From the NCBI GenBank assembly GCA_965204375.1, contig OZ241986.1, forward strand, positions 3,008,001 through 3,072,000: 64,000 bases of DNA, written 5' to 3'. This stretch comes from Candidatus Latescibacterota bacterium (GTDB lineage Bacteria; Latescibacterota; UBA2968). Below the pieces are notes generated by a model. The model saw only the letters and a program-made list of their open reading frames with translations. It ran no database searches and was not told the DNA's origin. Every line of letters starts with the position of its first letter. Position 1 is the stretch's first letter. A program made the position numbers and the translations under genes. Shown piece by piece: positions 3,491 through 59,294 of this stretch.

Positions 3491-4330
3491 GTGACACAAT
3501 GCGATCCCCCCAAATGGCGTTTCCTGAATACCCAACATGGAAACGCCTTTTTTAATATGGCAGTAGATGAAGCCCTCGTGCGCTCGATAGCAACAGGTGC
3601 TCGGCCCGCATTTCGCGTTTACGGGTGGCAACCGCCCGCGGTCTCCTTTGGGTATGCACAGCGCATCAGCCGCGAAGTCGATGCCCAAAAAGTTCGCGAG
3701 CGCGGTATCGACATTGTCCGTCGTCCCACCGGTGGCCGCGCTGTCTTGCACTGGAACGAACTGACCTACAGCGTTGTCTGCCCTGCCGACAATCCCGTGA
3801 TGGGGGGCAATATCAACGAAGCCTATCGCAAAATCAGCGAAGGCCTCCTATCGGGTATCCGCGCTATCGGCGTTGATGCGACCTTTGAATCCCGTCGCCA
3901 AACACAGCCTTCACCGCGCGGCAAAGAACTCACTGCGCCCTGTTTTACCAGTACGGCGCAATACGAAGTCACATTCAAGGGACGCAAACTCATCGGCAGC
4001 GCGCAACAGCGCATCGGCACAATGCTCTTACAGCACGGATCACTCCTGCTCGGCGCAGAGCACAAACAAATCGCCGATCTTCTGCCCGGCGACAAACCAA
4101 GCCTGCAAAAGCGTTTTGCACGCGAACTCGACCGCCACACCACCTCGCTCTCTGAAGCCCTCGCATACCCCATCAATTTCGACACGGCGGCCACAGCCAT
4201 CCGGCAAGGCATTCAAAATACCTTTAACATCCAACTTGTTGAAGCCTCACTCAGCGAAACAGAAATCGCCGAAACCCAACGCCTTATCGCCGAGAAATAC
4301 GCAACCTATGAATGGAATGACAAGTATTGA
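3491..4330 (+). CDS. Lipoate-protein ligase A / octanoyltransferase LipM family
   Basis: NMAVDEAL, RRPTGGRAVLH and KLIGSAQ motifs. Confidence 0.9.
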   Translation: MTQCDPPKWRFLNTQHGNAFFNMAVDEALVRSIATGARPAFRVYGWQPPAVSFGYAQRISREVDAQKVRERGIDIVRRPTGGRAVLHWNELTYSVVCPADNPVMGGNINEAYRKISEGLLSGIRAIGVDATFESRRQTQPSPRGKELTAPCFTSTAQYEVTFKGRKLIGSAQQRIGTMLLQHGSLLLGAEHKQIADLLPGDKPSLQKRFARELDRHTTSLSEALAYPINFDTAATAIRQGIQNTFNIQLVEASLSETEIAETQRLIAEKYATYEWNDKY

Positions 4331-4739
4331 TTCTTCAAAGACCTGGACCTCGCATCCCCTGCGCGACGAGCCTTTGGCAAAATCTGTTTTACTCGTACTC
4401 ATCATCCTGGGCGTCGCGTTTATTGTCGGCATGAGCTTTCAGAGCATCTCTTTCGCCTTTCTTTCACTCGCATTGCTCACCGCGACGATGACCCGCTATT
4501 TTTTCACAACGCGCTATGTTATCGACGCTCACGGTTTTACCATTTCACATATCGGCACACGCAGGCAATATTTATGGACAAATTTTCGCCGCGCCACACG
4601 CCATCCCGACGGCATCTTCTTAAGTCCTTTTGCCAAACCGCATCGCCTCGACACATTTCGCGGTCAATTCCTGCGCTCGAAAAACCCCGCTGAGATCTAC
4701 CATGTCGTCCAAAAACACATCGCTATTGACCCGGCTTAA
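4308..4739 (+). CDS. Hypothetical membrane protein (2 TM plus a small soluble, possibly PH-like domain)
   Basis: Two hydrophobic helices; overlaps both neighbours as in an operon; start moved from 3873 to ATG 4308 (4317 is an alternative). Confidence 0.7.
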   Translation: MNGMTSIDSSKTWTSHPLRDEPLAKSVLLVLIILGVAFIVGMSFQSISFAFLSLALLTATMTRYFFTTRYVIDAHGFTISHIGTRRQYLWTNFRRATRHPDGIFLSPFAKPHRLDTFRGQFLRSKNPAEIYHVVQKHIAIDPA

Positions 4740-5055
4740 GAATTACTGCGCCCATGCCTTTGCCGTCTCCCCCCCCGAAAGTGCCATCACCGAAGAAGAC
4801 GAAATCCTCGCCGAAAAAGCCGCCGCCTTCATCGTAAGGCGCCGACTCACAGCACCCGCCATTATGTTACTTGAAACCGGGCGACCCTTTAACTATATTG
4901 GCAGCCAACTTTTGACTTTTTTGTCGCCCTTCGTATCTATCATCTTTTCCTCAACAGCTGAGTTTGATCGCTTCACGCGCTTTCTGGAAAAACGGGAAAG
5001 CATTCCCTGCCTCATTCGCCATATTGAAACCCTGGAAAACAAAAACCATGGATAA
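4702..5055 (+). CDS. Hypothetical protein
   Basis: ATG 4702; overlaps the downstream gene; protein-like segment APAIMLLETGRPFNYIGSQ. Confidence 0.7.
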   Translation: MSSKNTSLLTRLKNYCAHAFAVSPPESAITEEDEILAEKAAAFIVRRRLTAPAIMLLETGRPFNYIGSQLLTFLSPFVSIIFSSTAEFDRFTRFLEKRESIPCLIRHIETLENKNHG

Positions 5056-6835
5056 GCTCGACGTCATCATCGCTACCGATTGCGGCAGCACCACGACCAA
5101 AGCCATCTTGATAGAAAAAAAGGGCGATATCTATCGCCAGACCTATCGGGGCGAAGCACCTACCACAGTTGAAGCCCCCTATGAAGACGTCACGCGCGGC
5201 GTGCTCAACGCCATTCAAGAAGTCGAAGAACTCTCTAACAGGCAAATTCTCGACGGCGAAACCATCATCACACCCGCAGAAGATCATCGCGGAGTTGATA
5301 TCTACATTTCCACCAGCAGCGCGGGCGGCGGCCTGCAAATGATGGTCGGCGGCGTCATTCAGGCCATGACCGGCGAAAGCGCGCAGCGTTGCGCCCTCGG
5401 CGCAGGTGCAATTGTCATGGACATTCTCGCGTCCAACGACGGGCGGCAACCCCACGAAAAAATCGAACGCATTCGCCAGTTGCGTCCCGATATGGTACTC
5501 CTTTCGGGCGGCACAGATGGCGGCACCATTTCGCACGTTGTCGAACTGGCCGAATTTATCTCCGCAGCCGACCCCAAACCGCGATTTGGATCGGGATATC
5601 AACTGCCCGTCATCTACGCAGGAAACAAAGATGCCGCACAGGAAATCGAACGCACTCTGGGCGACAAAACAGCCCTCACCATCACGGAAAACATCCGCCC
5701 CACGCTCGAAGAAGAAAACCTCGGACCTGCTCGTCATGTGATCCACGACCTCTTTCTCGAACACGTCATGGCGCAAGCACCGGGCTATCGAAAACTCATC
5801 TCCTGGACAGGCGCACCCATCATGCCCACACCCGGCGCAGTTGGCCTGATGATGCAAACCGTATCCAAACAACAAAATATCAATGTCGTGGGCGTTGACA
5901 TAGGTGGCGCCACCACCGACGTATTCAGCGTCTTTGACGATATCTTCAACCGCACGGTATCTGCCAATCTCGGCATGTCCTACAGCGTATCCAACGTACT
6001 CGCCGAAGCGGGCCTCGACGACGTCATGCGCTGGGTACCTTTCAAAATCGACGAAGCCGACCTGCGAGACCGCATCAAAAACAAAATGATCCGCCCCACC
6101 ACAATTCCGCACATGCTCGAAGAACTTCAGGTCGAACAGGCCATTGCCCGCGAAGCCCTGCGCCTGGCCTTTGTCCAGCACCGCGCACTCGCCGTGGGTC
6201 TCAAAGGCGTACAGGCCGAGCGCACCCTATCCGATGTATTTGACCAATCCGCAGGTGGCGAAAGCCTCATCAAAATGCGCGACCTCGATCTCCTCGTCGG
6301 AAGCGGCGGTGTTCTATCTCACGCCCCGCGTCGAATGCAAACAGCCGCCATGCTCATCGACGCCTTCCAGCCCGAAGGCATCACGCGCCTCGCCGTTGAC
6401 AGCATCTTTATGATGCCACACCTCGGCGTACTTTCATCGGTCAATGAAATCGCCGCTACGCAAGTTTTTGAACGCGACTGCCTCATTTACCTCGGCACGT
6501 GTATCGCACCCATCGCCCAGGGCAAAATAGGCGCGCCCTGTGCACAATACGAAATCGGCCTTCCCGACGGAGCCCAATCCGGCACCCTGAATATTGGCGA
6601 CCTTCTGCACTTCCCCCTCGAAGCAGGTCAGGAAGCACACCTCACCTTACAACCCGAGCGCAACACAGACGCAGGTGCCGGGCCGGGCCGAGAACTGAAC
6701 ACCACCGTCAAAGGGGGCACCGCCGGGCTGATCCTCGACGGACGCGGTCGCCCCATTGTATTTGCCGAAAATCAATCCGAACGCGCCGATCAAATAAGCC
6801 AGTGGAGCGAAACCCTCGACCTCTACCCCCGATAA
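5048..6835 (+). CDS. Glutamate mutase L (GlmL/MutL)-family actin-like ATPase
   Basis: Two ASKHA phosphate motifs DCGSTTTK and VDIGGATTDV, plus SSAGGGL and LLSGGTDGG typical of the GlmL/MutL family; start ATG 5048. Confidence 0.85.
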   Translation: MDKLDVIIATDCGSTTTKAILIEKKGDIYRQTYRGEAPTTVEAPYEDVTRGVLNAIQEVEELSNRQILDGETIITPAEDHRGVDIYISTSSAGGGLQMMVGGVIQAMTGESAQRCALGAGAIVMDILASNDGRQPHEKIERIRQLRPDMVLLSGGTDGGTISHVVELAEFISAADPKPRFGSGYQLPVIYAGNKDAAQEIERTLGDKTALTITENIRPTLEEENLGPARHVIHDLFLEHVMAQAPGYRKLISWTGAPIMPTPGAVGLMMQTVSKQQNINVVGVDIGGATTDVFSVFDDIFNRTVSANLGMSYSVSNVLAEAGLDDVMRWVPFKIDEADLRDRIKNKMIRPTTIPHMLEELQVEQAIAREALRLAFVQHRALAVGLKGVQAERTLSDVFDQSAGGESLIKMRDLDLLVGSGGVLSHAPRRMQTAAMLIDAFQPEGITRLAVDSIFMMPHLGVLSSVNEIAATQVFERDCLIYLGTCIAPIAQGKIGAPCAQYEIGLPDGAQSGTLNIGDLLHFPLEAGQEAHLTLQPERNTDAGAGPGRELNTTVKGGTAGLILDGRGRPIVFAENQSERADQISQWSETLDLYPR

Positions 6836-6870
6836 GAGAAAGAACAAGGCTATGATTTAATTTATTTTTC

Positions 6871-6898
6871 TTGTAAAGTACCCCTCGCATTGTATATT
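6871..6898 (+). promoter_or_regulatory. Putative sigma70 promoter
   Basis: TTGTAA-16-TATATT preceded by an AT-rich tract, 30 bp before ATG 6928. Confidence 0.4.
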
Positions 6899-6927
6899 CC
6901 GTTATCCGTAACCTCAGGTATTACTCT

Positions 6928-8046
6928 ATGGCACACGCATACACACCCGGTCTTCGCGTCACCCCGCAGACCCTTCTGCAACGCCAGCGCCAACTCCCCC
7001 TCAAAGGTGAAGTCGTCGTATCACAAGGCGATAGCGTGACGCGCGATCAGGTCGTTGCCCACACGCACCTGCCCGGCAACGTCACCACCCTCAATCTGGT
7101 CAATATCCTGAGTTGTACGCCAGAAGAATTGCCCAATTACATGCTCAAACGCGAAGGCGACCCCGTCGAAGCCGACGAACCCATTGCCGAAACCCGCCCC
7201 TTCATCAAATGGTTCAAAACCACCGTTAAAGCACCCATTAGTGGCACCCTTGAAAGCATCTCTAAAATTACCGGACAGGTCATTTTTCGCGCGCCGCCCC
7301 GCCCCGTTCAGGTACAGGCATACATCGATGGCAATGTGATAGAAATTCTGCCCGAAGAAGGCGTCGTTATCGAAACCACAGGTGCATTTGTGCAGGGCAT
7401 ATTTGGCGTAGGCGGTGAAACCTGGGGACCTCTGCGCGTCATCTCCGAAGAGCCAGACCAAGTTCTAACCCCCGACCAAATCGACGACTCGTGCGCGGGA
7501 AAAATCGTCGTAGGCGGCAATCTGCTTACCCTCGACGTAATTGACAAAGCGCGGGAAAGCGGTGCCGTGGGCATCATTGGAGGCGGCATCCGAGACGCCG
7601 ATTTGCGCGACCTGCTCGGTTACGACCTCGGCGTAGCCATCACCGGCACCGAGAATATCGGCCTCACCGTTATTGTCACCGAAGGCTTTGGCCCCATCGC
7701 AATGGCGCGCAAAACCTTTGGCATACTGAGCGAAAACAATGGCAAAGAAGCCTCTATCTCGGGTGCCACGCAGATCCGCGCTGGCGTTTTGCGTCCCGAA
7801 ATCATCATTCCAGAATCCACCATCCACGAGCAAGCCGACGAATCCGATAATCCGGGCCTCATCAAAGGGGCACTCCTGCGCGTAATTCGCGCACCCTATT
7901 TTGGCCAGGTGGGCAAAGTCACGGCACTGCCACCCGAATTGCAAACAGTCGAATCCGAAACCCATGTGCGCGTACTCGAAGTAGAATTTGACAATGGCAA
8001 CCGCGCCATTGTCCCGCGCGCCAACGTCGAACTCATCGAAGAGTAA
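6928..8046 (+). CDS. Hypothetical protein with barrel-sandwich-hybrid (lipoyl/biotinyl-like) repeats and a KOW-like C-terminus
   Basis: GEVVVSQGDSV, KREGDPVEADEPIAE and VKAPISGTL segments; VIRAPYFGQVGKV. Confidence 0.8.
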   Translation: MAHAYTPGLRVTPQTLLQRQRQLPLKGEVVVSQGDSVTRDQVVAHTHLPGNVTTLNLVNILSCTPEELPNYMLKREGDPVEADEPIAETRPFIKWFKTTVKAPISGTLESISKITGQVIFRAPPRPVQVQAYIDGNVIEILPEEGVVIETTGAFVQGIFGVGGETWGPLRVISEEPDQVLTPDQIDDSCAGKIVVGGNLLTLDVIDKARESGAVGIIGGGIRDADLRDLLGYDLGVAITGTENIGLTVIVTEGFGPIAMARKTFGILSENNGKEASISGATQIRAGVLRPEIIIPESTIHEQADESDNPGLIKGALLRVIRAPYFGQVGKVTALPPELQTVESETHVRVLEVEFDNGNRAIVPRANVELIEE

Positions 8047-8069
8047 ACGACTCCATCGGGAGATTGCGT

Positions 8070-9275
8070 ATGAGATATTTTTTGTGTTGCATCACACTCG
8101 TGCTTTTTACAGCACAGTTGCATGCACAACAACCCACAGGTGTCAAAGCCGAAGACACCCCCAACGACTCGGGCGGCAGCATCACCGTTGTGTGGAACCG
8201 CGCAGAACTCCCCAACGGGGCAATGTACAAAATTGTAGTCAGCGAATCGGAAACCGGTCCTTTTCACCCCGCAGCCAATATCGACCCATCGGACAATCTG
8301 CAATCCACTGATCCCGGCACTTTTGGACACGGTGTAGAAACATTCCACAAGTTCTTTGCCAGAATCTCCAAATATGTTGATCCCGCCGACTCATCTAAAA
8401 GCATCGCCATAGAAAATGGCAAAACCTATTACGTGCAGGTCATCGCCCAACTCCCTGATGATGAAGTGTTTCCCTCGGCAATCGCAAGTGCAGAGGCTTA
8501 TGAAAATTTCTTTAACACTCTTAAAACCAACAACTTCATTCTCGGCACGATCTTCTCCCTCATCATTTTGATCAGCATTTTCCTCGCCCAAAAACGCGAA
8601 CTCTTCATCCGGCGCATCGCCGGCCTCGAAGCCCTCGACGAAGCCCTCGGCCGCGCCACGGAAATGGGCAAACCCGTGCTCTTTGCACACGGTTTGACGT
8701 CTATGGGCACTGTTTCCACCATTGCAGCAGTCAATGTGCTTTCCCGTGTGGCCAATCGCACTGCCGAATTTAATACCGAATTGCGCGTAGCCAACAACGA
8801 CCCGGTCGTCATGGCCGTGAGTCAGGAAGTCGTCAAAGAATCCTATCTCAACGCAGGTCGTCCCGATGCCTATTCAGAAGACTCAGTCTTTATGGTCGCC
8901 ACCGAACAATTCAGCTATGCCGCAGCCCTCGACGGCATGATGGTGCGCGATAGACCTGCCACCAACATCATGATGGGCTACTTCTTTGCCGAATCTCTGC
9001 TTTTAGCAGAAACCGGCGCATCCATAGGTGCGATTCAAATTGCGGGTACTGACTCCTACACCCAACTGCCCTTTTTCATCACCACCTGCGACTATACGCT
9101 CATGGGCGAAGAACTCTATGCGGCGAGTGCGTATCTCTCCCGCGAACCCAAACTGCTGGGCAGCCTTAAAGGGCAGGACATCGGCAAAGCAGTACTCTTG
9201 ATCGTTATGATTTTGGGCACACTTCTGGCAACCCTCGGAAATCAAACACTCACGCATATTTTCACCGCATATTAG
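8070..9275 (+). CDS. Membrane-anchored protein: FN3-like periplasmic domain plus DUF6754-like domain
   Basis: Signal peptide; AEDTPNDSGGSITVVW...GKTYYVQV; TM; IRRIAGLEALDEALGRATEMGKP; GEELYAASAYLS. Confidence 0.8.
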   Translation: MRYFLCCITLVLFTAQLHAQQPTGVKAEDTPNDSGGSITVVWNRAELPNGAMYKIVVSESETGPFHPAANIDPSDNLQSTDPGTFGHGVETFHKFFARISKYVDPADSSKSIAIENGKTYYVQVIAQLPDDEVFPSAIASAEAYENFFNTLKTNNFILGTIFSLIILISIFLAQKRELFIRRIAGLEALDEALGRATEMGKPVLFAHGLTSMGTVSTIAAVNVLSRVANRTAEFNTELRVANNDPVVMAVSQEVVKESYLNAGRPDAYSEDSVFMVATEQFSYAAALDGMMVRDRPATNIMMGYFFAESLLLAETGASIGAIQIAGTDSYTQLPFFITTCDYTLMGEELYAASAYLSREPKLLGSLKGQDIGKAVLLIVMILGTLLATLGNQTLTHIFTAY

Positions 9276-9289
9276 CAGGGGACTCTTTC

Positions 9290-9949
9290 ATGCTTTTTTT
9301 ACGACGCACACTCCCGCTGATCATCGCCTTTGCAGTGGGCCTGATTGGCATTCTCGTTTTCTATATTCCACACAGCAGTGCCCAATATCTCGAGTATGAA
9401 TTGACAAAATGGGATCGCATTGTCGCTGCTTTTGCTCTGGCATTGGGCATCTATAGCCTGATGCGCTTGCATTGGGGCCGTGTTCGGCGGCAGCAAGCCG
9501 GGTGGGCATATAGCTTTCTCGTTTTCGTCGGTTTCACGGTCATGTCTATTTTTGCCATTTACAACGATGGACACGGTCCTTTCAACCCCCAGGTCGCTGA
9601 ATCAGGGCCATTTGTATGGATGTTTAATAATGTGCAGGTACCAGCCGATGCCACCATGTTTTCCATACTCGCGTTTTTTATCGCATCTGCAGCCTATCGC
9701 ACTTTTCGCGCCCGCACACCCGAAGCAGCAATCCTGCTCGTATCGGCCATCATCGTGATGATCGGTCGTGTGCCTATTGGTGGTCTCATATCCGATTCTA
9801 TACCAGAACTTTCCCAATGGCTCATGGCCGTGCCCAATCTAGCAGCCAAGCGCGGCATCTTGCTCGGTGTCAGTCTCGGCATAGTCGCCACATCACTACG
9901 CATCATCTTTGGCATCGAACGCTCTTATCTCGGCGGAGGTGAAGAATGA
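9290..9949 (+). CDS. Hypothetical multi-TM membrane protein
   Basis: About 6 hydrophobic helices; ATMFSILAFFIASAAYR motif; operon spacing. Confidence 0.85.
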   Translation: MLFLRRTLPLIIAFAVGLIGILVFYIPHSSAQYLEYELTKWDRIVAAFALALGIYSLMRLHWGRVRRQQAGWAYSFLVFVGFTVMSIFAIYNDGHGPFNPQVAESGPFVWMFNNVQVPADATMFSILAFFIASAAYRTFRARTPEAAILLVSAIIVMIGRVPIGGLISDSIPELSQWLMAVPNLAAKRGILLGVSLGIVATSLRIIFGIERSYLGGGEE

Positions 9950-10776
9950 AAGAATTTTTGCTCAATATCGACCGCCGCATCATCTTCATTTTTGTTGCAC
10001 TTGGCGTCATCATTCCCGCGCTCACTTCTTTTAACCTGCCCATCAATCCCACTCCAAATGTGCAGTCTATCTACGACACCATTGAAGAAGTGGGAAAGGA
10101 AAACGGCACCGTCCTCATCTCCTTTGACTACGGTCCCGGCTCCATGCCCGAAGTACAGCCCATGGCCCTTTCGGTGTTGCGCCACTGTTTCAAGCGCAAC
10201 GTCAAAGTAGTGGGCATGTGCCTTTGGCCCCAGGGGGTAGGTTTGGCCCAACAAGCCTTTGATACAACCTCAAAGGAATTGGATGCCGAATACGGTAGCG
10301 ACTATGTCTTTCTCGGATTTAAAACCGGATTCCAATCGGTGGTTGTCAGCATGGGTCACGACTTCCACGGTACTTTCCCTCAAGATTTGCCTGGTAACAA
10401 CACAACCGAATTACCTGTCACCGAAAATATAAAGGGATTGGCGGATTTCGACTATGTGATATGCCTGGCAGCGGGCAATACGCCAGATGGAATATGGATA
10501 CCTTTCGGACAAGAACGCTACAAATTCAAATTTGGCCTCGGCTGTACGGCTGTGATGGCACCTGATCAATTTCCCTACTTGCAGTCGGGCCAAATGAACG
10601 GCATGATGGGGGGATTGGCCGGTGCCGCCGAATACGAAACCCTCGTGCAAGCCTCCGGTACCGCTACTGAAGGCATGCGCCCGCAATCCGTTGTGCATCT
10701 CATCATCATCTTCTTCATCATCCTGGGTAATGTGATGTACTTCCTCTATGGCCGCCCGAAAGGAGGTGCCCAGTGA
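9946..10776 (+). CDS. Hypothetical membrane-anchored protein
   Basis: N- and C-terminal TMs; GMMGGLAGAAEYE motif; ATGA overlap with upstream gene. Confidence 0.85.
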   Translation: MKEFLLNIDRRIIFIFVALGVIIPALTSFNLPINPTPNVQSIYDTIEEVGKENGTVLISFDYGPGSMPEVQPMALSVLRHCFKRNVKVVGMCLWPQGVGLAQQAFDTTSKELDAEYGSDYVFLGFKTGFQSVVVSMGHDFHGTFPQDLPGNNTTELPVTENIKGLADFDYVICLAAGNTPDGIWIPFGQERYKFKFGLGCTAVMAPDQFPYLQSGQMNGMMGGLAGAAEYETLVQASGTATEGMRPQSVVHLIIIFFIILGNVMYFLYGRPKGGAQ

Positions 10777-11504
10777 GCCGCGATCATATAATTTTTATTG
10801 TCTTCTTATTCATCTTTGCCACCATCAATATCTACCTCTTTGGCTCGGGCAGCCTATCTGCGGATTGGACCGGCTTTGGTACGTTTATCGCCGCTGGCAT
10901 TACCCTATCGCTTTATAGCTTTCTCTACAAAGACAACCCCCTCTTTAAATTTGCCGAAAACCTCTATGTGGGTGTAGCTGCCGCATATACACTCAATCAG
11001 ATTTGGTACACCGTGCTTTTGGCCGATGTCGTGAATCCCCTCTCCGAACTCGACAGCGAAAACCTGAGCAATCTATGGCTCATTGTACCCACATTGCTCG
11101 GCCTCTTCATGCTCACCCAACTCTCCTCGGCAAAATTTAGCTGGCTCAGCCGCATTGCATTCGCATTTGTCGTCGGCCTGGGGGCGGGACTGGCTATTCC
11201 ACGTACCATCGCGGCTAACGTTTTGGCCCAACTGGAACCGACCATGCAACCCATAGCAGCTACCTGGGTGGGATTAGACCTGTTTATTATTCTGGTCGGC
11301 GTCGTTACGGTACTCGTCTATTTCTTCTACTCTGTCGAACACACCGGTCCCGTGGGTGTGGCGTCCAAAATTGGTATCTGGTTTCTCATGATCTCGTTTG
11401 GCGCATCATTTGGCTACACCATTATGGCGCGTCTTTCACTACTAATTGGACGCGTCGGGTTCTTGCTCGAAGACTGGCTCGTGCTCCCATTGCCTTATTT
11501 TTAA
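10773..11504 (+). CDS. Hypothetical multi-TM membrane protein
   Basis: YSFLYKDNPLFKFAENLYVG and FGASFGYTIMAR; GTGA overlap; GGAGG RBS. Confidence 0.85.
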   Translation: MSRDHIIFIVFLFIFATINIYLFGSGSLSADWTGFGTFIAAGITLSLYSFLYKDNPLFKFAENLYVGVAAAYTLNQIWYTVLLADVVNPLSELDSENLSNLWLIVPTLLGLFMLTQLSSAKFSWLSRIAFAFVVGLGAGLAIPRTIAANVLAQLEPTMQPIAATWVGLDLFIILVGVVTVLVYFFYSVEHTGPVGVASKIGIWFLMISFGASFGYTIMARLSLLIGRVGFLLEDWLVLPLPYF

Positions 11505-11559: not shown

Positions 11560-12522
11560 ATGCCCAATTCCGTGCTGACAGTTGACAACCTCCAAACGCA
11601 TTTTCATACAGACAGCGGAACAGCGAGGGCGGTAGATGGCGTATCATTCACGCTCAACAAGGGCAAAACATATGGCCTTGTTGGTGAATCGGGGTGCGGA
11701 AAAAGTGTCACTTCGCTGTCAATCATGCGATTGGTACCTCATCCTGGCCGCATTGAAAGTGGGCATATTTTTTTTCAGGACCGTGACCTGGTATCCCTTT
11801 CAGATACCGAAATGCGCGACATACGCGGCAATGACATTGCCATGATCTTTCAGGAACCCATGACCAGCCTCAACCCTGTTTACACCTGTGGGTTTCAGAT
11901 TGATGAAGCTGTGAGGCGACATCAGGGATTAGAAAAAACAAAAGCGCGAAAAAAAACAGTTGAAATGCTCCACCTCGTGGGCCTGCCCGATCCCGAGCAA
12001 CGCGCAAACGAATACCCGCACCAATTATCGGGCGGGCAACGCCAGCGCGTCATGATCGCCATGGCCCTCTCGTGCAATCCCAAAGTGCTAATTGCGGACG
12101 AACCCACAACAGCACTCGATGTCACCATACAGGCGCAAATCCTGGACCTGTTGTGCGACTTGCAGCAACAACTCGGCATGGCCGTCCTGCTCATCACACA
12201 CGACTTGGGCATTATTGCCGAAGCCGCCGATCAGGTCGCGGTCATGTACGCAGGCAAAATTGTAGAAACCGGACCATCAGACGCGATCTTTCACAACCCC
12301 AAGCATCCCTACACACAGGGCTTACTCGCATCAGTACCCCGTCTGGACATCGCGAACAAGCGCCTCAGAACCATTCCGGGCACAGTGCCCGAAGCCACGC
12401 GATTTCCATCGGGATGTCGATTTGCGGATCGATGTGAAAAGGTCGATTCAATTTGTCGAGAAACCACACCACAACTGCAAACAATTAGCGGCAATCACCA
12501 GACCGCGTGTTGGATGGCATAA
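11560..12522 (+). CDS. Oligopeptide/dipeptide ABC transporter ATPase (OppD/DppD-like)
   Basis: [29 protein letters not shown]-terminal Cys-containing oligo_HPY region. Confidence 0.95.
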
Positions 12523-12534
12523 AGGCGAGAAATA

Positions 12535-13485
12535 GTGCTTCTTCAAGTACAAAATCTAAAAAAACACTACCCCATTTCTCAGGGACTTTGGGGACGCAAC
12601 GCCGGGCATGTCAAAGCAGTAGATGACGTCAGCTTCGATATCTCTCCCGGCGAAACCCTCGGCCTAGTCGGCGAATCCGGATGCGGAAAAACCACAACTG
12701 GACGCGCCATATTGCGCCTTATTGATGCGACATCAGGCACCGTGCGATTCAAAAATACCGACATACTCTCCCTGGGAAAAAAGCAACTTCGAACACTGCG
12801 CCGGCACATGCAAATCATCTTTCAGGACCCTTACGGATCGCTAAACCCCCGCCTCACCATCGGCGGTATCCTCTCGGAACCCCTGAAAATCCACGGCGAC
12901 AAAACAAAAGAGCGAGTCGCCGACCTGCTCAACACCGTGGGCTTATCTCCCGACGTCGCGCGCCGATATCCGCACGAATTTTCCGGTGGACAGCGACAGC
13001 GCATTGGCATTGCCCGCGCATTGGCCGTAAAACCGCAATTCATTGTCGCGGACGAACCCGTATCTGCACTCGACGTATCGATTCAGGCACAAATTGTAAA
13101 CTTGCTCCAAGATTTACAGACTCAGTTTGGCCTCGCCTATCTCTTCATCGCGCACGACCTGAGCGTGGTCAAACACATCTCCAATCGCGTGGCGGTCATG
13201 TACCTGGGCAAAATTGTCGAACTGGCAGAAAGCCAGGAACTCTACGACAATCCGCAACATCCCTATACACGCGCATTGCTCTCATCAATCCCCATACCCG
13301 ATCCGCGCGTCAGGGGATCGCGCACCATTTTAACAGGCGATGTGCCCAGCCCGGTCAACATACCTTCGGGCTGTGCATTTCATCCGCGCTGTCCCGAAGC
13401 AACGCCGGACTGCGCCCACCGCAAACCCGAACTCTTAGACATTGAACCCGGCCACAGCGTGGCCTGTATCTTGCGGCACAATTAG
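12535..13485 (+). CDS. Oligopeptide/dipeptide ABC transporter ATPase (OppF/DppF-like)
   Basis: [40 protein letters not shown]. Confidence 0.95.
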
Positions 13486-13678: not shown

Positions 13679-16600
13679 GTGAAGGTCTTAAAAATATTAA
13701 CGTTGCTGTGTTTCACCGGCCTCGTATCCCACACCGCCCTGGCACAGCCCCCCTCTTTAGGTCCCGCCAAAGCCATTGGAGTTGACCTCGCGAACACCCC
13801 GTTAAACCGTCCGTCTCCCGATCAAAAAAGCTACACGTATTGGACGCCTGAAACAGCCGACGGCTTTTTCCCATCACTTTTGGGGCTGCGTACGGCCAGC
13901 GCGAGAATGATCCGCACCAGATATTTCAATATCTACTTCTCTACTGCCGAAAAAACCGCGCGCCATATTGCCGACTTCTGCGATGAGGTTCTCTCGAATC
14001 TCATGCGCCATTACCCCACCTTTGTCGATCGCATTGCACCCATCCACGTCGTCGTTGACGATCAGGCGGATTATCTGGGCAATGCCTTCGCCGTGTACAG
14101 CGCCAATTACATCCACTTCTGGACCAACCCCATCGACTGGGAAATCCGCGGCACCAGCGACTGGGTACGCAATGTTTTTGTCCATGAACTCGCCCATATC
14201 GTAACTCTGAAAGCCGCCTATAAGGGCTTGCCATTCCAAATTGGCATCGTCAACGCCTCTCGCGCCAATGAAAATCCCGATTTCAGCTTTACACTTGGCC
14301 TGTATCACCTCGCTGTCAACTCGGGTTTTGCCGAAGGCATCGCGCAATACGAAGCCACCCAATACGGCGACGACCGCTGGGACACACACCGCGACATGCT
14401 CCTGCGCATGGCCGCCCTCGAAAATGATTTGCTCTCCCTCCCCAGCATGGGACAACTCGGCGGCAAGGGCAACTACCACGGCGAAATGGTCTATAATCAG
14501 GGATATGCCATGCTCAACTACATTGGCGAACGCTTTAGTCCGAGTGTTGTCAGACAAATTTTTGAACACAGACCCATTATCAACTTCAACTCCTCGCTCA
14601 AAAAAGCCACTGGCGTATCGGCCAAACAACTCTACCGCGACTGGAAAGCGCATATCGAAGAACAATACAGCGCGGTTCAAAGCGACATCCAGGAAGCCGG
14701 CGAACGCGAAGGCGAATTGATCGTCGATAAGGGCAATCTGGACTATCACCCGGTCTATTCTCCGCAAGGCAACAAGCTGGGCTTTATCTCCAACGACGAC
14801 AGCGACTATTTCATCACCGAACTCAAAGTGATGGACCTCACCACCAAAAAAGTCACAAAAATAGCCGACCGCGTCGATAATCGCTTTGTCTGGACAGCCA
14901 GCGGCGACAGCCTGATGTACATCAAAGCCGTAGGCGCGCGTTGGGACATCTTCACCTATGACACAAAAACGAAAAAAGAAACCCGCGTCACTGTGGGGCT
15001 GCGCGGCAAAGACCCCACCCTCTCCCCCGATGGCAAACAAATCGCCTTTGTAACCATGAGAGATGGCACGGCGAACATCGGCCTTGTAAACACCGACGGC
15101 ACCGATGTGCGATACCTCACAAATAACAACGACGCCACACAGTATTTTGGTCCCAAATGGTCGCCCGACGGCAAACACCTGCTCTTCAGCGTATTCCGCA
15201 CGGGCGAAGACCGCGACATTGCCATCATCGACGTGGATGCCACAACCTGGGAAAAGAAAAAAGGCAGGCGTTCGCTAAAAAAAGAGGAAGTTGACACACA
15301 ACTCGACAGCCTCCAGCAGGCAAAAGCCGACAGCCTCAAGGCATTTCCCGACAGCCTCGCCTATGCCAACAATGCCAACTTCAAAGCCATCGTACACTCC
15401 ACAGCCGACGAACGCGACCCTATCTGGCTGCCCGATAGCAGCGGATTTGTCTTCAGTTCGGACCGCACGGGCATCTTCAACCTCTACACCCACGACATGG
15501 CGACCGGAGAACAAAAGCAACTGACCAATGTTGTGGGCGGCGCGTTTTTGCCCACTATTTCTCCCGATGCCAAATATGTGATCTACGCGGGGTATCACGC
15601 AGCAAACTACAACCTCTATCGCATACCCATCTCCGAGGCCGTTGCCGTTGATCCCCCCGAGGGTATTGCGCGAGACTATGCCGAGATTTACACCGGCAAA
15701 TCCATCACCGACCTTCACGACATCGGGCGGTATTCCACGCGCCTCGTCTCCTACGGCATCACACCCATCGCATTGCTGGGCCCCACATTTATCGGCAACC
15801 GATTCGGCCTGGATCAAATCAGCGCGGGATTTCAATGGGCCTGGGGCGACCTGCTCGGCAGCGACGTTTTTGTAACCACCGCCCTGATCGGCAAAAACTT
15901 CAGACGACAACAAGACTTCAACTCGGAATTTGCCTTCTACTACCAGAACAGCCTCACCCCCATTCTATCTGAACAAAGCACCTATGTCCCCCGCATCTTC
16001 TTTGGAGGCAGCAGGCAAACCATCAACAGTATCGTGGATTTGGGCACTGTCCAAACCGTGCGCGATACACTCAGCGGCACACTGATCACCACAAACGACG
16101 AGGGGCAACAGGTTCTAATCCCCAATGTTACGCAGCACTTAGACCTCACGGTTACAGAAGAAGACGATTTCAAGGATGTTTTCTCGGATTTTACGGTAGG
16201 CACCGAAATGGGGGTAGGCCGCGGACACTATTTCAGCCTGGCTTATGGCTACCGCAAGTATTCTGAGAACCTGCACGCCGTCCAGGTCCTTCACGACAGC
16301 TCTCGCGTATTTCAGACCAATTTGGGGACCGGTGCTATTGAAGACATCACCGATCAGATCCCCGGTCCGGGCTATGCATCGCAAGAAACCCTTCTCGACG
16401 ATTTTCTCTACAAAGAACTCGATTTCTTCAAAAGTAACGAATGGATGGGTGGTTGGAGCTACATCACCCTCAAACCCGCAACCGACCTCTACATCAACCC
16501 ATCGGGGGGGCGCGCATTATCCTTCCGCTATCGGCGCATCAATGCAACCGTAATAGATTCACTGGCCCGCACGCCAGATCTGAACGAGGACTTTGTCCCG

Positions 16601-17254
16601 GATGCAATCGGCGAAGACCTGTCACCCGCATTTTTCCGAGGCGATAAAGTCAACGTGGGATTCAACGAATACATCGCCTCCTTCAATGAATTTATCCCGC
16701 TCGTTGGCCGCTCAACACTCGCCCTACAGGTCTTTGGAGCCTACAAAGACAGCTACGTCAAAGAAGTACAACAAGAAGGCGGCACATTTGAAGGCGTATT
16801 CTATTACCCCCTGCGCTATTATCTCGGTGGTCTGGGCACCTTGCGCGGATATCCGTATTTCACAATCGCAGGCGGCAAAGCCCTCTTTGGTCGCACCACG
16901 CTGACCCTGCCCATCTTTAAGCACATCGGTGCGGAACTGCCGCCCCTCTTTTTTGACAAAGTTTACGCCTCGCTCTTCTTTGAGTTTGGCGGCACATCCA
17001 ATGCCGCCAGCATCGGCGATATTTTTGACGTAAATGAAGAAGTACACAGTGGGCGATGGGACAAATTCAAAAACTCTTTCCTATTTGACTACGGTGCCGA
17101 AATCCGATTCCAGATATTTTCACATTACCGCCTACCCATGTTCGGCTATTTCATCGTCGCCCGTCCCACCAAACTCGAAGTCCCAGCCCGCAACAACCCC
17201 GATATCATCGAAGAGGTCAGTGGGACGCGATTCTATTTTGGCCTGTCATTGTAA
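13679..17254 (+). CDS. Outer-membrane protein: zinc metallopeptidase (MA-like) + PD40/TolB-like propeller + Omp85/BamA-type barrel
   Basis: Signal peptide; HELAH...FAEGIAQY; repeated SPDGK/SPQGN; YYLGGLGTLRGY loop motif; ends FYFGLSL. Confidence 0.85.
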   Translation: MKVLKILTLLCFTGLVSHTALAQPPSLGPAKAIGVDLANTPLNRPSPDQKSYTYWTPETADGFFPSLLGLRTASARMIRTRYFNIYFSTAEKTARHIADFCDEVLSNLMRHYPTFVDRIAPIHVVVDDQADYLGNAFAVYSANYIHFWTNPIDWEIRGTSDWVRNVFVHELAHIVTLKAAYKGLPFQIGIVNASRANENPDFSFTLGLYHLAVNSGFAEGIAQYEATQYGDDRWDTHRDMLLRMAALENDLLSLPSMGQLGGKGNYHGEMVYNQGYAMLNYIGERFSPSVVRQIFEHRPIINFNSSLKKATGVSAKQLYRDWKAHIEEQYSAVQSDIQEAGEREGELIVDKGNLDYHPVYSPQGNKLGFISNDDSDYFITELKVMDLTTKKVTKIADRVDNRFVWTASGDSLMYIKAVGARWDIFTYDTKTKKETRVTVGLRGKDPTLSPDGKQIAFVTMRDGTANIGLVNTDGTDVRYLTNNNDATQYFGPKWSPDGKHLLFSVFRTGEDRDIAIIDVDATTWEKKKGRRSLKKEEVDTQLDSLQQAKADSLKAFPDSLAYANNANFKAIVHSTADERDPIWLPDSSGFVFSSDRTGIFNLYTHDMATGEQKQLTNVVGGAFLPTISPDAKYVIYAGYHAANYNLYRIPISEAVAVDPPEGIARDYAEIYTGKSITDLHDIGRYSTRLVSYGITPIALLGPTFIGNRFGLDQISAGFQWAWGDLLGSDVFVTTALIGKNFRRQQDFNSEFAFYYQNSLTPILSEQSTYVPRIFFGGSRQTINSIVDLGTVQTVRDTLSGTLITTNDEGQQVLIPNVTQHLDLTVTEEDDFKDVFSDFTVGTEMGVGRGHYFSLAYGYRKYSENLHAVQVLHDSSRVFQTNLGTGAIEDITDQIPGPGYASQETLLDDFLYKELDFFKSNEWMGGWSYITLKPATDLYINPSGGRALSFRYRRINATVIDSLARTPDLNEDFVPDAIGEDLSPAFFRGDKVNVGFNEYIASFNEFIPLVGRSTLALQVFGAYKDSYVKEVQQEGGTFEGVFYYPLRYYLGGLGTLRGYPYFTIAGGKALFGRTTLTLPIFKHIGAELPPLFFDKVYASLFFEFGGTSNAASIGDIFDVNEEVHSGRWDKFKNSFLFDYGAEIRFQIFSHYRLPMFGYFIVARPTKLEVPARNNPDIIEEVSGTRFYFGLSL

Positions 17255-44067: not shown

Positions 44068-47000
44068 ATGTTTGAAAACGGAACGATTCTCGACAAAAAA
44101 TATCAAATCCAGGCGCACCTGGGATCCGGGGGCATGGGCGAAGTCTATCGGGTTTTGGACCTGGAGCAAAGTCAGGAGTGTGCGCTCAAAATTTTGAATA
44201 CCATGGTGGATCAGAAGGCTGTGCATCGCCGCTTTCACAGAGAATTTCAAGTGTTGAACAGATTCCAGCACCCGCGCCTGGTACGCACGTATGCCTGGGG
44301 ATTTGCCGAAGAGCGTCCCTATTTTACAATGGAATATTTGCCCGGAAATACATTAGAAAAAATAATTGCCGATCATGCACGTTTAGGGCAATTCCGGACG
44401 TCTCACTTTTTCGATTTGATACAACAAATTGCTGATGGATTGGCATATATCCACGCGCAGGGTGCGGTGCATCGCGATCTCAAACCGTCCAATATTATGG
44501 TTTTGGAAACAGAAGAGGGGATCGAAACCACGATTCTGGATATGGGACTGGCCAAACTCAGGCATCTGCATAGCGTTTCCATTACGCAGACGGGCACAGC
44601 CATTGGCACGGCAGAATATATGTCGCCAGAGCAGGGTAAGGGACTCTGGGTGGATCACCGGTCGGATATATACTCATTGGGTGTGATTTTATACGAGATG
44701 CTCACGGGTGTACCACCCTTTTCTGGACAAAACCCAATATCTGTTATCATGAAGCATATTCGCGAGTCCCCGCCACCCCTGGATGAAGTCAATATCGCGA
44801 TTCCCGAACAGACGCAACAAATTGTGCTGAAGTTGCTGGCAAAGGAGTCTGTTGATCGCTATCAGTCGGCAGAAGAGGTGGTACGAGCCTTACCATCGAG
44901 ATTTGTACTACCCGATGACATGCAGCGCGATGTGCAAAGAAAAGTCATGCGGCCGCAATTTGTCGGGCGCGAATCCGAAACGAAGATATTGCGCGCCATG
45001 CTGAAGGATGTACAGGCTTGCGAGCAACGCGTGGTTCTGATCTCTGGTGAGTCTGGTGTGGGAAAAACGAGACTAATTGAGGAACTATTGGGCGACGCTT
45101 TGATCCATGACTTTCTGTGTTTGAAAGGCGCAGGCCAGGAAGAGGGCGGACAAATATACGGTGCGTTGATCAATGCTTTTCAAGGAATGACTGATTCGAT
45201 GGAAAGGGTTCCCGATTCTGTAGAATCAGACAAATTTTCTATTATGGAGCACTGGTTGCAGTTATTAAAGCGTCTGCAGCAGAAACAACCCATTGTGTTG
45301 TGTTTGGAAGATATTCAATGGGTGGATGAATTGACCCTGGAATTTTTACAGTATGTATTGCGTGATCCAGAACCGTGCCCGTTCTTATTATGCCTGACTT
45401 GTCGATGGTCTAACCTGGAACCGCTTCCAGAAGAAATTAAAAATTTTATACACAGCAATGCATTTGCCAAGGCGACTCAGATTCGGTTGAAAAATCTGCC
45501 ACAAGAAGCATCGGGATATTTAGCGGCGTCAATGTTGGGTGAACGATCCATACCGTCCGATGCATTGCAAACTCTATTCAGAGAAACGGGTGGGTTGCCC
45601 TTGTTTGTCGTGGAGGCGGTGCGGACACTGGTGAATGCCGACGTGGTTCGACAGAATGTGCCCGGCGATTGGCAGTGGGGAGAATTTCCCGAAACTTTGT
45701 TATCCGATGATATTTCAGAGATTTTGCACAGGCGCATAGCTACCCTTCCTGTGGTGCAACAGCGGGTGCTGGAATACGCCTGTGTTTTTCTAAATGACTT
45801 TTCTTTTGAGTTATTGGCAGCGGTTTGGCGCGGTGATGAATTAGAACTACTGGATATGCTGGACGACCTGATTGCAGAAGGACTTTTAGCACCTTGTGGA
45901 GAAACTGAAGATCAATATCGATTTTCACAGGAATTGTGTCGGCAGGCAATTTACGATCACATGCAAGATGTAAGACGGCGTCTGTTACATCGAGAAATTG
46001 GCAATATTTTGGAAAAGACGAAAGACGCGGAAGAATTGATAGAAGAACTGGCGGATCATTTTGCGGCAGCAAAAGAACGAGATAAGGCTGTGAAATATAC
46101 GCTTCTATCAGGCAAAAAGGCATTGGAAAAACATTCTTATCGCCAGGCATTGATGAGATTTGAGGCTGTACGGGACTGGGTAGCGAATGACGCCTTTGAA
46201 TCACCTGCAGATACTATTGATTTTTTGTGCGATTATGCAGATACGCTGCGTAACTGCGGTCAGCACAATAAAGCATTGGAACTTTTAGAGGAGGCACAGG
46301 CGTTATTGCCCGATGATCGGAAAGATTTGAAAGCGCGTATTTTGAATCGTGAAGGTGTTATTTACAGCTTGCTTCAACACAGGGAAATTGCTGAAGAATA
46401 TATGCTGGAGGCATTGCAGCTTTATCGTGAACTCGGTGATCTTGAGGGTGAAATTCAGACATTGGATAGTTTGGTTTATTTATGCGATGTGTCAGAACGG
46501 CACGAAGAAGCAATAGCGTATATGCGTCAAAAAATAGAGAAACATCATATGCTGGGAGATCCGCAAAACAGAGCTTTTATACAAGGGCGAGAAGGCCAGA
46601 CTGCATTAATGGAATTTCGCTTTGAGACAGCCAAAGAACATCTAAAAGCTGCAGTAAAAACATCTCAAAGACTTGGATTTGAACACTATCGTATTAGGGC
46701 ACTCAATTTACTTCAAAGAGTATATTTTTATCTCGGTGATCTCAATCGAGCAGAAGCCCTTTGCCATGAAGTCATCTGTGAGTGGCAAAAACGAGGCGAT
46801 GTGTATTGGGAAGCAATGAATCTTCTCTGGTTGGGAGAGTTAGCACTGGAACGAGATGATTTTACAGAAGCATTGGAATATGCCGAGATTTCGGTAGAGA
46901 GATTTTTGGAAACACCGCGAAGAGATTATGTCTATCGCGCTTATGCGATTGCGGCAACGGCTGCGGCGAGAATGAGAGATACAGAGACAGCACTGGAATG

Positions 47001-48870
47001 GGCAGAAAAAGCCAGTGAAGGTGTACAGCAAACATCGGGTATGTACACGGGCATATTGCCCCTGGTGCATTGTGGTATTGGTGTTGCTTTGGCTAAAGCA
47101 GGACGGATTGCTGAAGCTGAAGAGGCTTTTGAGCAGGCGATTGAATGCCGAAAAGAATCCAAAGGCGACAACTGGGCGCGTGCGCTACTGATGGCAGGGG
47201 AGTTTTATCTCAATTGCGATGATATGGCAAAAGCACAAGCACATCTCAAAGCGGCAAAACAGGCGTTTGAAGAAATGGAAATGTCTTATTTTCAAGAGAA
47301 AATACAGGTATTATTGAATCAATCAGGGGAATCTTCTCACGACAGTGATACTGCATCCGATTCTGAGATTTCAGTCGATACGTTGTCCGTTGATCGCTTG
47401 CGCTTGCTTTACGATATGAGCCGGGAATTGACAACAGAGCGCGATGTCAAAGTATTATTGGATCGAATTTTGGGTAATTTGTTAGCTGTTTATCCAGCAG
47501 AGCGCGTGCTTGTTGCGATTAAAAATGAGACCCCAAAAGGCTTTGTGGTCGATGCTGTGCGCTACCACAATGTAGAAGCAGATGATGCAGAAGCTCTGAG
47601 TCGGGGTATTATTCGCTGCGTTATTGAGACAAATGAGCCCATTTTGAGCATTGATGCCCAGACAGACGACAGGCTCAATCAATATCAAAGCGTAATAGAC
47701 TATCACATTCGGTCTGTATTGTGCGTGCCCGTATTCCATCTGAATGAAGGTGTGATGGGTGCGCTATATGTGGATCATCGCGGTATAGGCAACGCATTTT
47801 CTCAAGAAGATCAGACATTTTTACAGGCATTTGCAAATCTGGTGGGTGTCGCACTGGTCAATGCGAGAATGTACGAACAATTGGAAGAAAAAGCGCGATA
47901 TTTGCAGCAACAGGTCGAAAAACGATATCAGCTTGACGATCTGGTCGGGCAAAGCGATGCTATGCAGGCGATCTACCGGCTTATAGAACGCGCTGCGAAG
48001 AGTGATATTCCCGTGCTTATTCAAGGTGAAACAGGTACAGGCAAAGAATTAGCTGCGCGCGCCATACACTACAATAGTACACGCAAAGACCAGCCATTTT
48101 TGTCGCAAAATTGTGCTGCTCTTTCACCAGATTTATTGCAGAGTGAGTTGTTTGGGCACAAAAAAGGCGCGTTTACAGGAGCAACTGAAGATCATAAGGG
48201 GATTTTTGAAGCGGCTGATGGCGGTACGGTTTTTCTCGATGAAATCGCCGATGCTCCCCCACCGTTGCAAAGGAGTCTGTTGCGGGTGTTGCAAGAAGGA
48301 GAGGTGCGGCGCGTGGGCGAAACAGTGAATCGCGCAGTGGATATACGCATTATTGCAGCGACCAATCGAGACTTAAAACAGGAAGTTGCAAAAGGCTTTT
48401 TCCGCGAAGATTTGTATTATCGGTTGCACGGGATTCAGATCGATATGCCGCCTTTGCGAGAACATATTGAAGATGTGCCGTTATTGGCCGAACATCTGCT
48501 CACCCGAGCAAAAGAAGATGCAAACAAGTCGGTTGGGGGACTGACAGTGGGTGCAATCAGGGCGCTCACAAGCTATGACTGGCCTGGCAATGTGCGCGAG
48601 TTGGAGAATAAGATTCGGCGTGCGGTTGCATTGGCAGAAGAAGGTGGTGAAATCACGTCCAATTTGTTTTCGGAAGCTGTCGGCTACACGACGTCGGATG
48701 TCCCTGTCGGATACCAGGGACATTTACAAGATCGTGTTCGGGAATATGAGAAATGGTTGATTATGGATGCTCTCGAGAAATACGAGGGCAATATTACGCA
48801 TACGGCTAAAGAATTAGGGATAACGCGCGCTGGATTGCAGAAAAAGATCAATCGTTTGGAGTTGAGATAG
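44068..48870 (+). CDS. Ser/Thr kinase - STAND AAA - TPR - GAF - sigma54 activator (AAA+, Fis-type HTH)
   Basis: GSGGMG, HRDLKPSN, DMG, GTAEYMSPE; GESGVGKT/LEDIQW; TPR-like helices; SVLCVP...GALYVD; GETGTGKE, GAFTGA, FLDEI, FREDLYYRL; HTH. Confidence 0.93.
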   Translation: MFENGTILDKKYQIQAHLGSGGMGEVYRVLDLEQSQECALKILNTMVDQKAVHRRFHREFQVLNRFQHPRLVRTYAWGFAEERPYFTMEYLPGNTLEKIIADHARLGQFRTSHFFDLIQQIADGLAYIHAQGAVHRDLKPSNIMVLETEEGIETTILDMGLAKLRHLHSVSITQTGTAIGTAEYMSPEQGKGLWVDHRSDIYSLGVILYEMLTGVPPFSGQNPISVIMKHIRESPPPLDEVNIAIPEQTQQIVLKLLAKESVDRYQSAEEVVRALPSRFVLPDDMQRDVQRKVMRPQFVGRESETKILRAMLKDVQACEQRVVLISGESGVGKTRLIEELLGDALIHDFLCLKGAGQEEGGQIYGALINAFQGMTDSMERVPDSVESDKFSIMEHWLQLLKRLQQKQPIVLCLEDIQWVDELTLEFLQYVLRDPEPCPFLLCLTCRWSNLEPLPEEIKNFIHSNAFAKATQIRLKNLPQEASGYLAASMLGERSIPSDALQTLFRETGGLPLFVVEAVRTLVNADVVRQNVPGDWQWGEFPETLLSDDISEILHRRIATLPVVQQRVLEYACVFLNDFSFELLAAVWRGDELELLDMLDDLIAEGLLAPCGETEDQYRFSQELCRQAIYDHMQDVRRRLLHREIGNILEKTKDAEELIEELADHFAAAKERDKAVKYTLLSGKKALEKHSYRQALMRFEAVRDWVANDAFESPADTIDFLCDYADTLRNCGQHNKALELLEEAQALLPDDRKDLKARILNREGVIYSLLQHREIAEEYMLEALQLYRELGDLEGEIQTLDSLVYLCDVSERHEEAIAYMRQKIEKHHMLGDPQNRAFIQGREGQTALMEFRFETAKEHLKAAVKTSQRLGFEHYRIRALNLLQRVYFYLGDLNRAEALCHEVICEWQKRGDVYWEAMNLLWLGELALERDDFTEALEYAEISVERFLETPRRDYVYRAYAIAATAAARMRDTETALEWAEKASEGVQQTSGMYTGILPLVHCGIGVALAKAGRIAEAEEAFEQAIECRKESKGDNWARALLMAGEFYLNCDDMAKAQAHLKAAKQAFEEMEMSYFQEKIQVLLNQSGESSHDSDTASDSEISVDTLSVDRLRLLYDMSRELTTERDVKVLLDRILGNLLAVYPAERVLVAIKNETPKGFVVDAVRYHNVEADDAEALSRGIIRCVIETNEPILSIDAQTDDRLNQYQSVIDYHIRSVLCVPVFHLNEGVMGALYVDHRGIGNAFSQEDQTFLQAFANLVGVALVNARMYEQLEEKARYLQQQVEKRYQLDDLVGQSDAMQAIYRLIERAAKSDIPVLIQGETGTGKELAARAIHYNSTRKDQPFLSQNCAALSPDLLQSELFGHKKGAFTGATEDHKGIFEAADGGTVFLDEIADAPPPLQRSLLRVLQEGEVRRVGETVNRAVDIRIIAATNRDLKQEVAKGFFREDLYYRLHGIQIDMPPLREHIEDVPLLAEHLLTRAKEDANKSVGGLTVGAIRALTSYDWPGNVRELENKIRRAVALAEEGGEITSNLFSEAVGYTTSDVPVGYQGHLQDRVREYEKWLIMDALEKYEGNITHTAKELGITRAGLQKKINRLELR

Positions 48871-48881
48871 ACGTTGAACAG

Positions 48882-59288: not shown

Positions 59289-59294
59289 AATATA

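Follow-up and report, generated by a model that had tools for sequence, protein, structure and literature searches.

We describe here a cluster of eight genes (g1 to g8, positions 4308-11504) carried by a 64,000-nucleotide stretch of a Candidatus Latescibacterota genome (contig OZ241986.1; the whole stretch is referred to below as the window), in which an actin-fold (ASKHA) ATPase of the GlmL/MutL family, g3, is encoded together with a partner protein, g4, and a four-gene membrane ‘cassette’, g5 to g8. The architecture of this module appears to be both undescribed and widespread, and we propose a function for it from its conservation and predicted structure; a literature search, made mainly outside the subscription journals, returned no description of the module, of DUF6754 (a domain of g5), or of such a combination with an actin-fold ATPase. 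We hold it to be very probable that all parts of the module belong to one system. Our preferred reading, attractive though a little short of probable, is that a shared cytoplasmic ATPase motor drives interchangeable membrane units and that the whole acts as a solute transporter. With more reserve, we suggest that primary active transporters, or membrane motors, could here have a new class, found in about ten phyla, with interchangeable four-subunit units and an ATPase of the actin fold rather than of the P-loop, P-type or rotary kinds.

Support for a single system comes from gene linkage across genomes. A genome scan gave at least 567 relatives of g4, of which the best 80 loci were taken with up to 10 kb on each side of g4; many lie on short contigs, and 45 of the 80 retain at least 7 kb on both sides. 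Among the 80, g3 is present at 62 loci, g5 at 50, g2 at 48, g6 at 46, g7 at 45 and g8 at 42, with g3, g4 and g5-g8 standing together at 40 of the 80 and at 33 of the 45 well-flanked loci; all eight genes occur at 22 of those 33. The 40 full loci carry the labels Latescibacterota, Gemmatimonadota, Eisenbacteria, Zixibacteria, Nitrospirota, Planctomycetota, Bdellovibrionota, Synergistota, Bacillota and Fermentibacterota, which bears out the suggestion in the original prediction, made from the window's sequence alone, that little-studied lineages elsewhere have clusters of this kind. The neighbourhood comparison that it proposed likewise finds the genes co-occurring across phyla, and through five rearrangements of gene order (L039, L043, L058, L060 and L065) in which the parts are still together. 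At three loci (L033, L049 and L079) the cassette occurs twice, in full or almost in full, with 39-51% identity between the copies and only one g3/g4 next to them. As separate observations, g7 alone is duplicated in tandem at L007:12789-14803 (62% identity), and at L033:19297-19941, in a single case, a His-rich membrane protein of 214 amino acids, lacking a Pfam match and presumed by us, by eye, to resemble a Ni/Co permease, is encoded between g5 and g6 of the third cassette.

In the window itself, the predicted run of eight tightly coupled genes stands: all eight reading frames are open and on the + strand, successive frames overlap by 38, 8, 4 and 4 bp at 4702, 5048, 9946 and 10773, and the remaining intergenic gaps measure 92, 23 and 14 bp. 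The two closest loci are Latescibacterota records (g4 identity 95% and 84%), and in comparison with these the third codon position takes most of the differences in every gene; g1 is the least constrained, with 17 of 41 differences against L001 at that position. The idea of an eight-gene module holds in that the genes are real but needs trimming, in that g1 occurs at 29 of the 80 loci and is thus accessory to the core, and in that the cluster is not isolated (see the table below): it is part of a longer same-strand run, with fabG-acpP-fabF-rnc and the lipoate-ligase gene upstream and oppD-oppF downstream. The g1 protein has two transmembrane (TM) peaks, and matches to bPH_6, bPH_7 and YcxB, under cut-off in 3 of 19 homologues, make its small soluble domain weakly bPH/YcxB-like. 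A candidate internal promoter at 6871-6898 (9/12 match) was rejected: 9 such sites were found against 11.1±3.6 expected, and it is not conserved in L002.

The identification of g3 as GlmL/MutL-related was sound at the level of the family. It is a member of the Pfam MutL family (PF13941; 422 bits against a cut-off of 27), also weakly matches the hydantoinase and BcrAD actin-fold families, and carries intact phosphate-1, phosphate-2 and adenosine motifs (D11-x-G-S-T-T-T-K, D284-I-G-G-A-T-T-D and S419-G-G), which do not vary in any of the 57 members aligned; g3 presumably hydrolyses ATP. Mean identity to the window protein across the g3 core is 75%. The Walker A pattern occurs in 1 of 63 g3 and 0 of 82 g4 sequences, and is nowhere conserved in g2-g8.

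Judged by sequence, g3 is nevertheless neither a canonical GlmL nor Or-4. It shares with GlmL/MutL (NF040745, TIGR01319) and Or-4 (NF040744) the PF13941 family, 28-33% identity over about 400-500 amino acids, and the same phosphate-1, phosphate-2 and PTP motifs, but scores under all three NCBIfam cut-offs (220.5 against 475, 156.8 against 204.05 and 201.8 against 600) and has a C-terminal extension of about 115 residues, the alignment of canonical GlmL covering only residues 7-476. In a FastTree tree with no outgroup, five references only and long branches meeting, 58 module proteins are split from five mutase-linked proteins by a long branch with support of 100. The company differs too: GlmL and Or-4 partner GlmS/GlmE or OraS/OraE, whereas g3 goes with g4, at times as a fusion, and with g5-g8. 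A candidate GlmS-mimicking insert in g3 was rejected (hhalign probability at most 5%, with five reference rows only).

These comparisons make it hardly credible that g3 is a reactivase of the usual kind, acting on a B12 mutase whose genes lie elsewhere, and that it adjoins membrane genes through inherited synteny. All 57 members do match the GlmL models, and g3/g4 are listed without a nearby cassette at 12 of the 45 well-flanked loci; yet the sub-cut-off scores and the long branch stand against this account, as does the fusion to g4, a partner not present in the reference mutase operons, in a linkage that outlasts rearrangement. Moreover, all five reference GlmLs lie in glutamate- or ornithine-mutase operons (5/5 fetched records), compared with none of the 80 loci here, where tblastn with GlmS, GlmE, Mal, OraS and OraE, the only B12 enzymes queried, gave no match within 10 kb of g4 (1.26 Mb). 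The absence of mutase subunits from the window, asserted in the original prediction, was also upheld, both by tblastn with the same queries and by Pfam on 55 open reading frames. That GlmL is an established reactivase is a softer statement than had been assumed: a passage of PMC4682846 terms MutL/GlmL a reactivation chaperone, with diol dehydratase work as its citation, and passages of PMC5597319, PMC5167688, PMC3958899 and PMC2667541 give background.

The partner protein g4 gave a confident model (predicted local distance difference test score, pLDDT, 93.6) with three parts: the barrel-sandwich hybrid that had been predicted (residues ~51-123) and, beyond that prediction, a β/β/α swivel domain (~130-297) and a KOW/SH3 domain (~308-372). 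Fold matches are moderate for each (Z 7.5-9.5), the swivel resembling PTS enzyme I (2wqd, Z 9.1) and RraA (Z 8.7), and the barrel-sandwich resembling NqrA/RnfC (Z 7.5-7.8; NqrA 7.8). A motif, G-x-T-Q-x-R-A-G-x-x-R-P-E, is nearly invariant. A lipoyl/biotinyl carrier role is not indicated, as there is no conserved tip lysine (K at position 90 in 40 of 112 sequences and at position 97 in 43 of 112), and the hairpin tip is instead exposed and hydrophobic (F/L-F/I-G/K-L/W-F); the swivel (130-297) likewise has no conserved histidine, so it lacks the phosphohistidine of PTS enzyme I and PEP synthase. The family is large and unnamed: all 8000 scored candidates passed, as did 2514 representatives at 50% identity, and a plasmid collection yielded no homologues. 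Full natural fusions of g3 to g4 are listed for 2 of 270 homologues (P0146 and P0225; 61% and 52% identical to g3). Three homologues of g4 (P0017, P0019 and P0020) bear an additional N-terminal domain with a precomputed Pfam assignment of PF07238, which we take to be PilZ; if so, this hints at control by cyclic-di-GMP.

No Pfam or NCBIfam match was found for g2. Its gene usually overlaps or immediately precedes g3, and is grouped in L043 with g5-g8; we regard it as a candidate adaptor between ATPase and membrane cassette. No fusion of g2 to other module parts was found among 7999 candidates of 302-2000 amino acids, which is weak evidence.

For the cassette, topologies were predicted from hydropathy and charge. 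The original prediction called g5 an FN3 plus DUF6754-like protein; the second half was, if anything, understated, because at 381 bits against a cut-off of 27 g5 is a true DUF6754 member (PF20539), with 53 of 53 family members above the cut-off, whilst for the FN3 half the outside segment yields weak signals (Big_5, E 0.043, in the window protein; fn3, E 0.003, in one homologue), both below cut-off. In the g5 model (pLDDT 86.7) the cytoplasmic DUF6754 forms a six-stranded Rossmann domain, with 37 invariant residues in 181, and matches Sir2Af2 (Z 11.9; root-mean-square deviation, rmsd, 3.5 over 140 aligned residues), the MthK RCK domain (Z 10.1; 3.1 over 115) and transhydrogenase domain III (Z 9.5; 3.1 over 134). 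Two of these Rossmann types gate membrane channels. The outside parts vary and the inside ones are conserved: mean identity to the window is 29% for the outside domain of g5, 47% for the g7 domain and 64% for DUF6754, and g5 lacks its outside domain altogether in three instances, L012, L065 and the third copy at L033.

Such a membrane-attached cytoplasmic Rossmann domain is also found, at similar fold (Z 9.5-10.1), in transhydrogenase and in the RCK-gated Ktr, Trk and MthK systems; these matches are generic, at 9-13% identity, and neither PntA/B nor a membrane subunit of the TrkH type was detected. One alternative has the cassette sensing across the membrane or acting as a gated channel, with an RCK-like g5, and the ATPase pair as a nucleotide-state switch or signalling output. 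We think this quite improbable. Fold searches with DUF6754 do list many RCK/TrkA-N rows (Z up to 10.1), the outside domains are variable and g4 has a KOW domain; but the RCK matches score no better than Rossmann folds unrelated to them and fall under Sir2, and no conserved regulator or kinase lies nearby.

The remaining cassette subunits belong to no consistent Pfam family, DUF6754 being the sole one. In g6 there are six TM peaks, with basic loops 2-3 and 4-5, and its long homologues (120 of 120 listed, from 174 found) are all split at about residue 95, in the predicted outside loop between TM3 and TM4, by inserts of up to ~400 amino acids in planctomycetes, some of which carry FG-GAP, TPR, FHA or FN3-like domains. 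In 4 of the 120 the insert is the soluble domain of g7, and its presence in this loop links g7 with g6 and argues that the domain lies outside. FHA domains are typically cytoplasmic, and their occurrence among these inserts is a small inconsistency with the outside placement. The g7 protein has two TM peaks and Atlas matches only to unnamed clusters, including Fidelibacterota and Chloroflexota; g8 has conserved D54, N55, E62, H190, R220 and R227. Both g6 and g8 have conserved residues, charged or polar, within or next to TM segments.

The same observations could describe one system that is not a transporter, in which the ATPase would be a remodelling chaperone or scaffold for envelope assembly or an export platform, much as in MoxR/Bat modules or with actin-fold alignment proteins of the PilM/GspL type; envelope partners or clients would then be bound by the variable outside domains. 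Linkage and fusion data serve this idea equally; the inserts are typical protein-binding domains (FN3-like, FG-GAP, TPR), TonB-dependent receptor or PorV-like genes adjoin the module or a lone g4 in several lineages, the neighbourhoods can be of a housekeeping kind (fab-rnc, gap-pgk-tpi, plsY), and the exposed hydrophobic hairpin of g4 would fit as well. Still, we consider it unlikely, if the most serious of the alternatives, in that no vWA, pilin or secretin partner was seen in the loci examined, and whole-cassette paralogues on one ATPase, together with conserved intramembrane polar residues, suit substrate handling better.

A further alternative, which we rate as rather improbable, makes g5-g8 a membrane cofactor enzyme, whose g5 Rossmann domain might bind a corrinoid or a nucleotide, with g3 and g4 as its reactivase. 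The diol/glycerol dehydratase reactivase DdrAB is an ASKHA ATPase that acts with a β/β/α swivel domain, an architecture that would here be split over two genes, g3 being homologous to mutase-linked GlmL over 419 columns and g4 supplying the swivel; the invariant residues of DUF6754, weakly enriched at strand C-termini (12 of 42 positions against 7 of 42 at N-termini), and lipoyl-enzyme genes close to some loci point the same way. Unlike DdrAB, the module has a membrane cassette, and its swivel sits on a chain of its own or on one fused at the C-terminus; no dehydratase was seen in annotated loci. DdrA is not among the top g4 fold matches listed. Against the enzyme reading, the B12-binding motif DxHxxG is found in no subunit (0 of 56 g5 and 0 of 50 g7 sequences), DUF6754 has no conserved histidine, a cobalamin riboswitch is absent from 25 loci, and g4 lacks both the phosphohistidine and the lipoyl lysine. 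Likeness to Rnf/Nqr, in the barrel-sandwich of g4 (as in RnfC/NqrA) and in two subunits of about six TM segments, is offset by the lack of flavoprotein or ferredoxin genes and of Fe-S motifs: no cysteine is conserved in g6 or g8, and CxxC occurs in 0-4 sequences per family.

Synthesising these findings, we return to the shared-motor transporter and propose a speculative model for how it might work. In this model g2-g8 would form one inner-membrane machine of two modules: a cytoplasmic motor, in which g3 is bound to g4 with g2 probably as adaptor, and a membrane unit, g5-g6-g7-g8. Within this unit g6 and g8 would make the membrane core, specificity would be set on the outer side by g7 together with the variable outside domains of g5 and g6, and g5 would turn its conserved Rossmann domain towards the cytoplasm. 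We suggest that ATP binding and hydrolysis by g3 could serve to grip and then release that Rossmann domain, much as has been proposed for mutase-linked GlmL, which would pull its B12 enzyme apart, and that this might flip the membrane core between ‘outward-open’ and ‘inward-open’ states, moving a small solute for which our first guess would be an amino-acid- or cofactor-type molecule. A single motor could then serve several paralogous membrane units. The combination of one ATPase pair, whole-cassette paralogues, and a variable outside with a conserved inside finds its simplest account in a shared motor acting through the g5 Rossmann domain. Group II ECF transporters, in which several membrane units share an ATPase, follow a similar plan, and in ABC/ECF systems with a shared ATPase, too, a single ATPase module serves several membrane units that are paralogues of one another and that vary outside but are conserved inside; the difference is that the ATPase here is of the actin fold, with no P-loop ABC ATPase, and that the membrane subunits match no ABC/ECF family consistently.

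Several observations weigh against this model. The 80 loci are the closest of at least 567 and hence a biased sample, and at the 12 well-flanked loci without a nearby cassette g4 stands alone (8 loci) or with g3, with or without g2 (4 loci). No protein fusing the ATPase side to the membrane side was found. Profiles of g2, g3, g5, g6, g7 and g8 against Protein Data Bank (PDB) sequences detected no solved relative of note and matched no known transporter; g8 has no consistent Pfam match in 44 members and no named Atlas match; and the Rossmann matches of DUF6754 are generic, with 202 chains at Z≥8 and many folds tied at Z 9-10. No riboswitch that could mark a substrate was detected at the module in 25 loci and the window, and the hosts are diverse in lifestyle (nitrifiers, anammox bacteria, heterotrophs), which would equally suit a housekeeping envelope role. 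Inverted-paralogue symmetry, typical of transporters, was not detected either. An inverted paralogy of g5 with g7 and g6 with g8, seen by eye in the order of elements, was rejected (hhalign probability 0.3 and 0.7%; own profile scores of 30 against 34±5 and 37 against 37±6, no better than reversed or block-shuffled nulls), and internal repeats in g8 or g6 were unsupported by profile scoring against nulls. Among the listed fold matches there is no DdrA, vWA or transporter fold, an absence that excludes nothing, and predicted complexes of part of g5, g6 and g8 with partner g7 (0.52, against 0.69 for a control with g5 replaced and g6 and g8 kept) were used neither way.

Table. Coordinates in the window of the eight cluster genes and their immediate neighbours
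Feature	Position	Strand	Description
g1	4308-4739	+	Accessory protein, outside the core; two TM helices, then small soluble domain
g2	4702-5055	+	Helical protein of 117 amino acids with one amphipathic or hydrophobic stretch
g3	5048-6835	+	GlmL/MutL-family actin-fold (ASKHA) ATPase, 595 amino acids
g4	6928-8046	+	Obligate partner of the ATPase; barrel-sandwich hybrid, swivel, KOW/SH3
g5	8070-9275 (alternative TTG start 8064)	+	Predicted signal peptide, outside domain, TM, DUF6754, TM
g6	9290-9949	+	Predicted six-TM protein, N-terminus inside
g7	9946-10776	+	Predicted TM, outside-facing α/β domain (about 31-248), TM
g8	10773-11504	+	Polytopic membrane protein, 7-8 hydrophobic segments
Lipoate-protein ligase family gene	3491-4330	+	Non-core neighbour; PF21948; overlaps g1 by 23 bp
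OppD/OppF oligopeptide ABC ATPases	11560-13485	+	Non-core neighbours; start 55 bp after the cluster

The genes that flank module loci are lineage-specific, with some recurrent themes. At 16 of the 80 loci, in several lineages, a gene for a lipoyl enzyme (ligase, LipA, glycine cleavage, E1-beta) is no more than 300 bp away, a lead for which there is no null; besides the window (3491-4330), lipoyl-related neighbours are seen in L015, L016, L022, L024, L027, L030, L041, L044, L049, L051, L072, L074 and others, and include 2-oxoacid dehydrogenase genes. Peptide ABC and TonB-receptor genes also recur: in L003, L004, L010 and L012 OppABC is encoded between g3 and g4 and OppDF after g8, of which the window keeps OppDF only. 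In L026, L032, L052, L059, L069 and L071 g4 is apart from the cassette and a PorV-like gene follows it within 22 bp; a conserved unannotated protein of ~270 amino acids, with a signal peptide and a C-terminal TM segment, is encoded between g3 and g4 in L028, L035, L054, L058 and L078; two Tll0287-like genes stand between g4 and g5 in a Nitrospirales locus (L072:9933-11487); and L064 has one T-box, unrelated to the module.

Elsewhere in the window, positions 13679-17254 encode a secreted protein of 1191 amino acids, part peptidase-MA-like and part WD40/TolB propeller, that probably ends in a C-terminal barrel; it is near the module in close relatives also. A low-GC region at 44068-51926, possibly a peptide-modification or acquired locus, encodes a Ser/Thr kinase-AAA-sigma54 activator fusion of 1600 amino acids; next to it come a radical SAM protein and then another sigma54 activator. 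A UvrD-like helicase (51965-55249) has a long N-terminal region with no Pfam match at E 1e-5 and, by eye, the look of a PHP-type phosphoesterase, and toxin-antitoxin and mobile-type genes (addiction antidote, BrnT, HNH) occupy 58631-62077 on the - strand.

To our knowledge, no transporter is energised by an actin-fold ATPase and, if the model is true, the module would embody a new principle of ATP coupling at membranes; were it indeed a new transporter class, mutase-linked GlmL would become a specialised offshoot of, or a sister within, a broader ATPase family. Even on a conservative view, glutamate fermentation cannot be read from many of the ‘glutamate mutase L’ annotations in groups such as Nitrospirota, anammox Planctomycetota, Latescibacterota and Zixibacteria. 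The module supplies a common context for DUF6754 and five unannotated families, and the soluble pair of g3 and g4, or their natural fusion, offers a handle on the biochemistry of the GlmL family.

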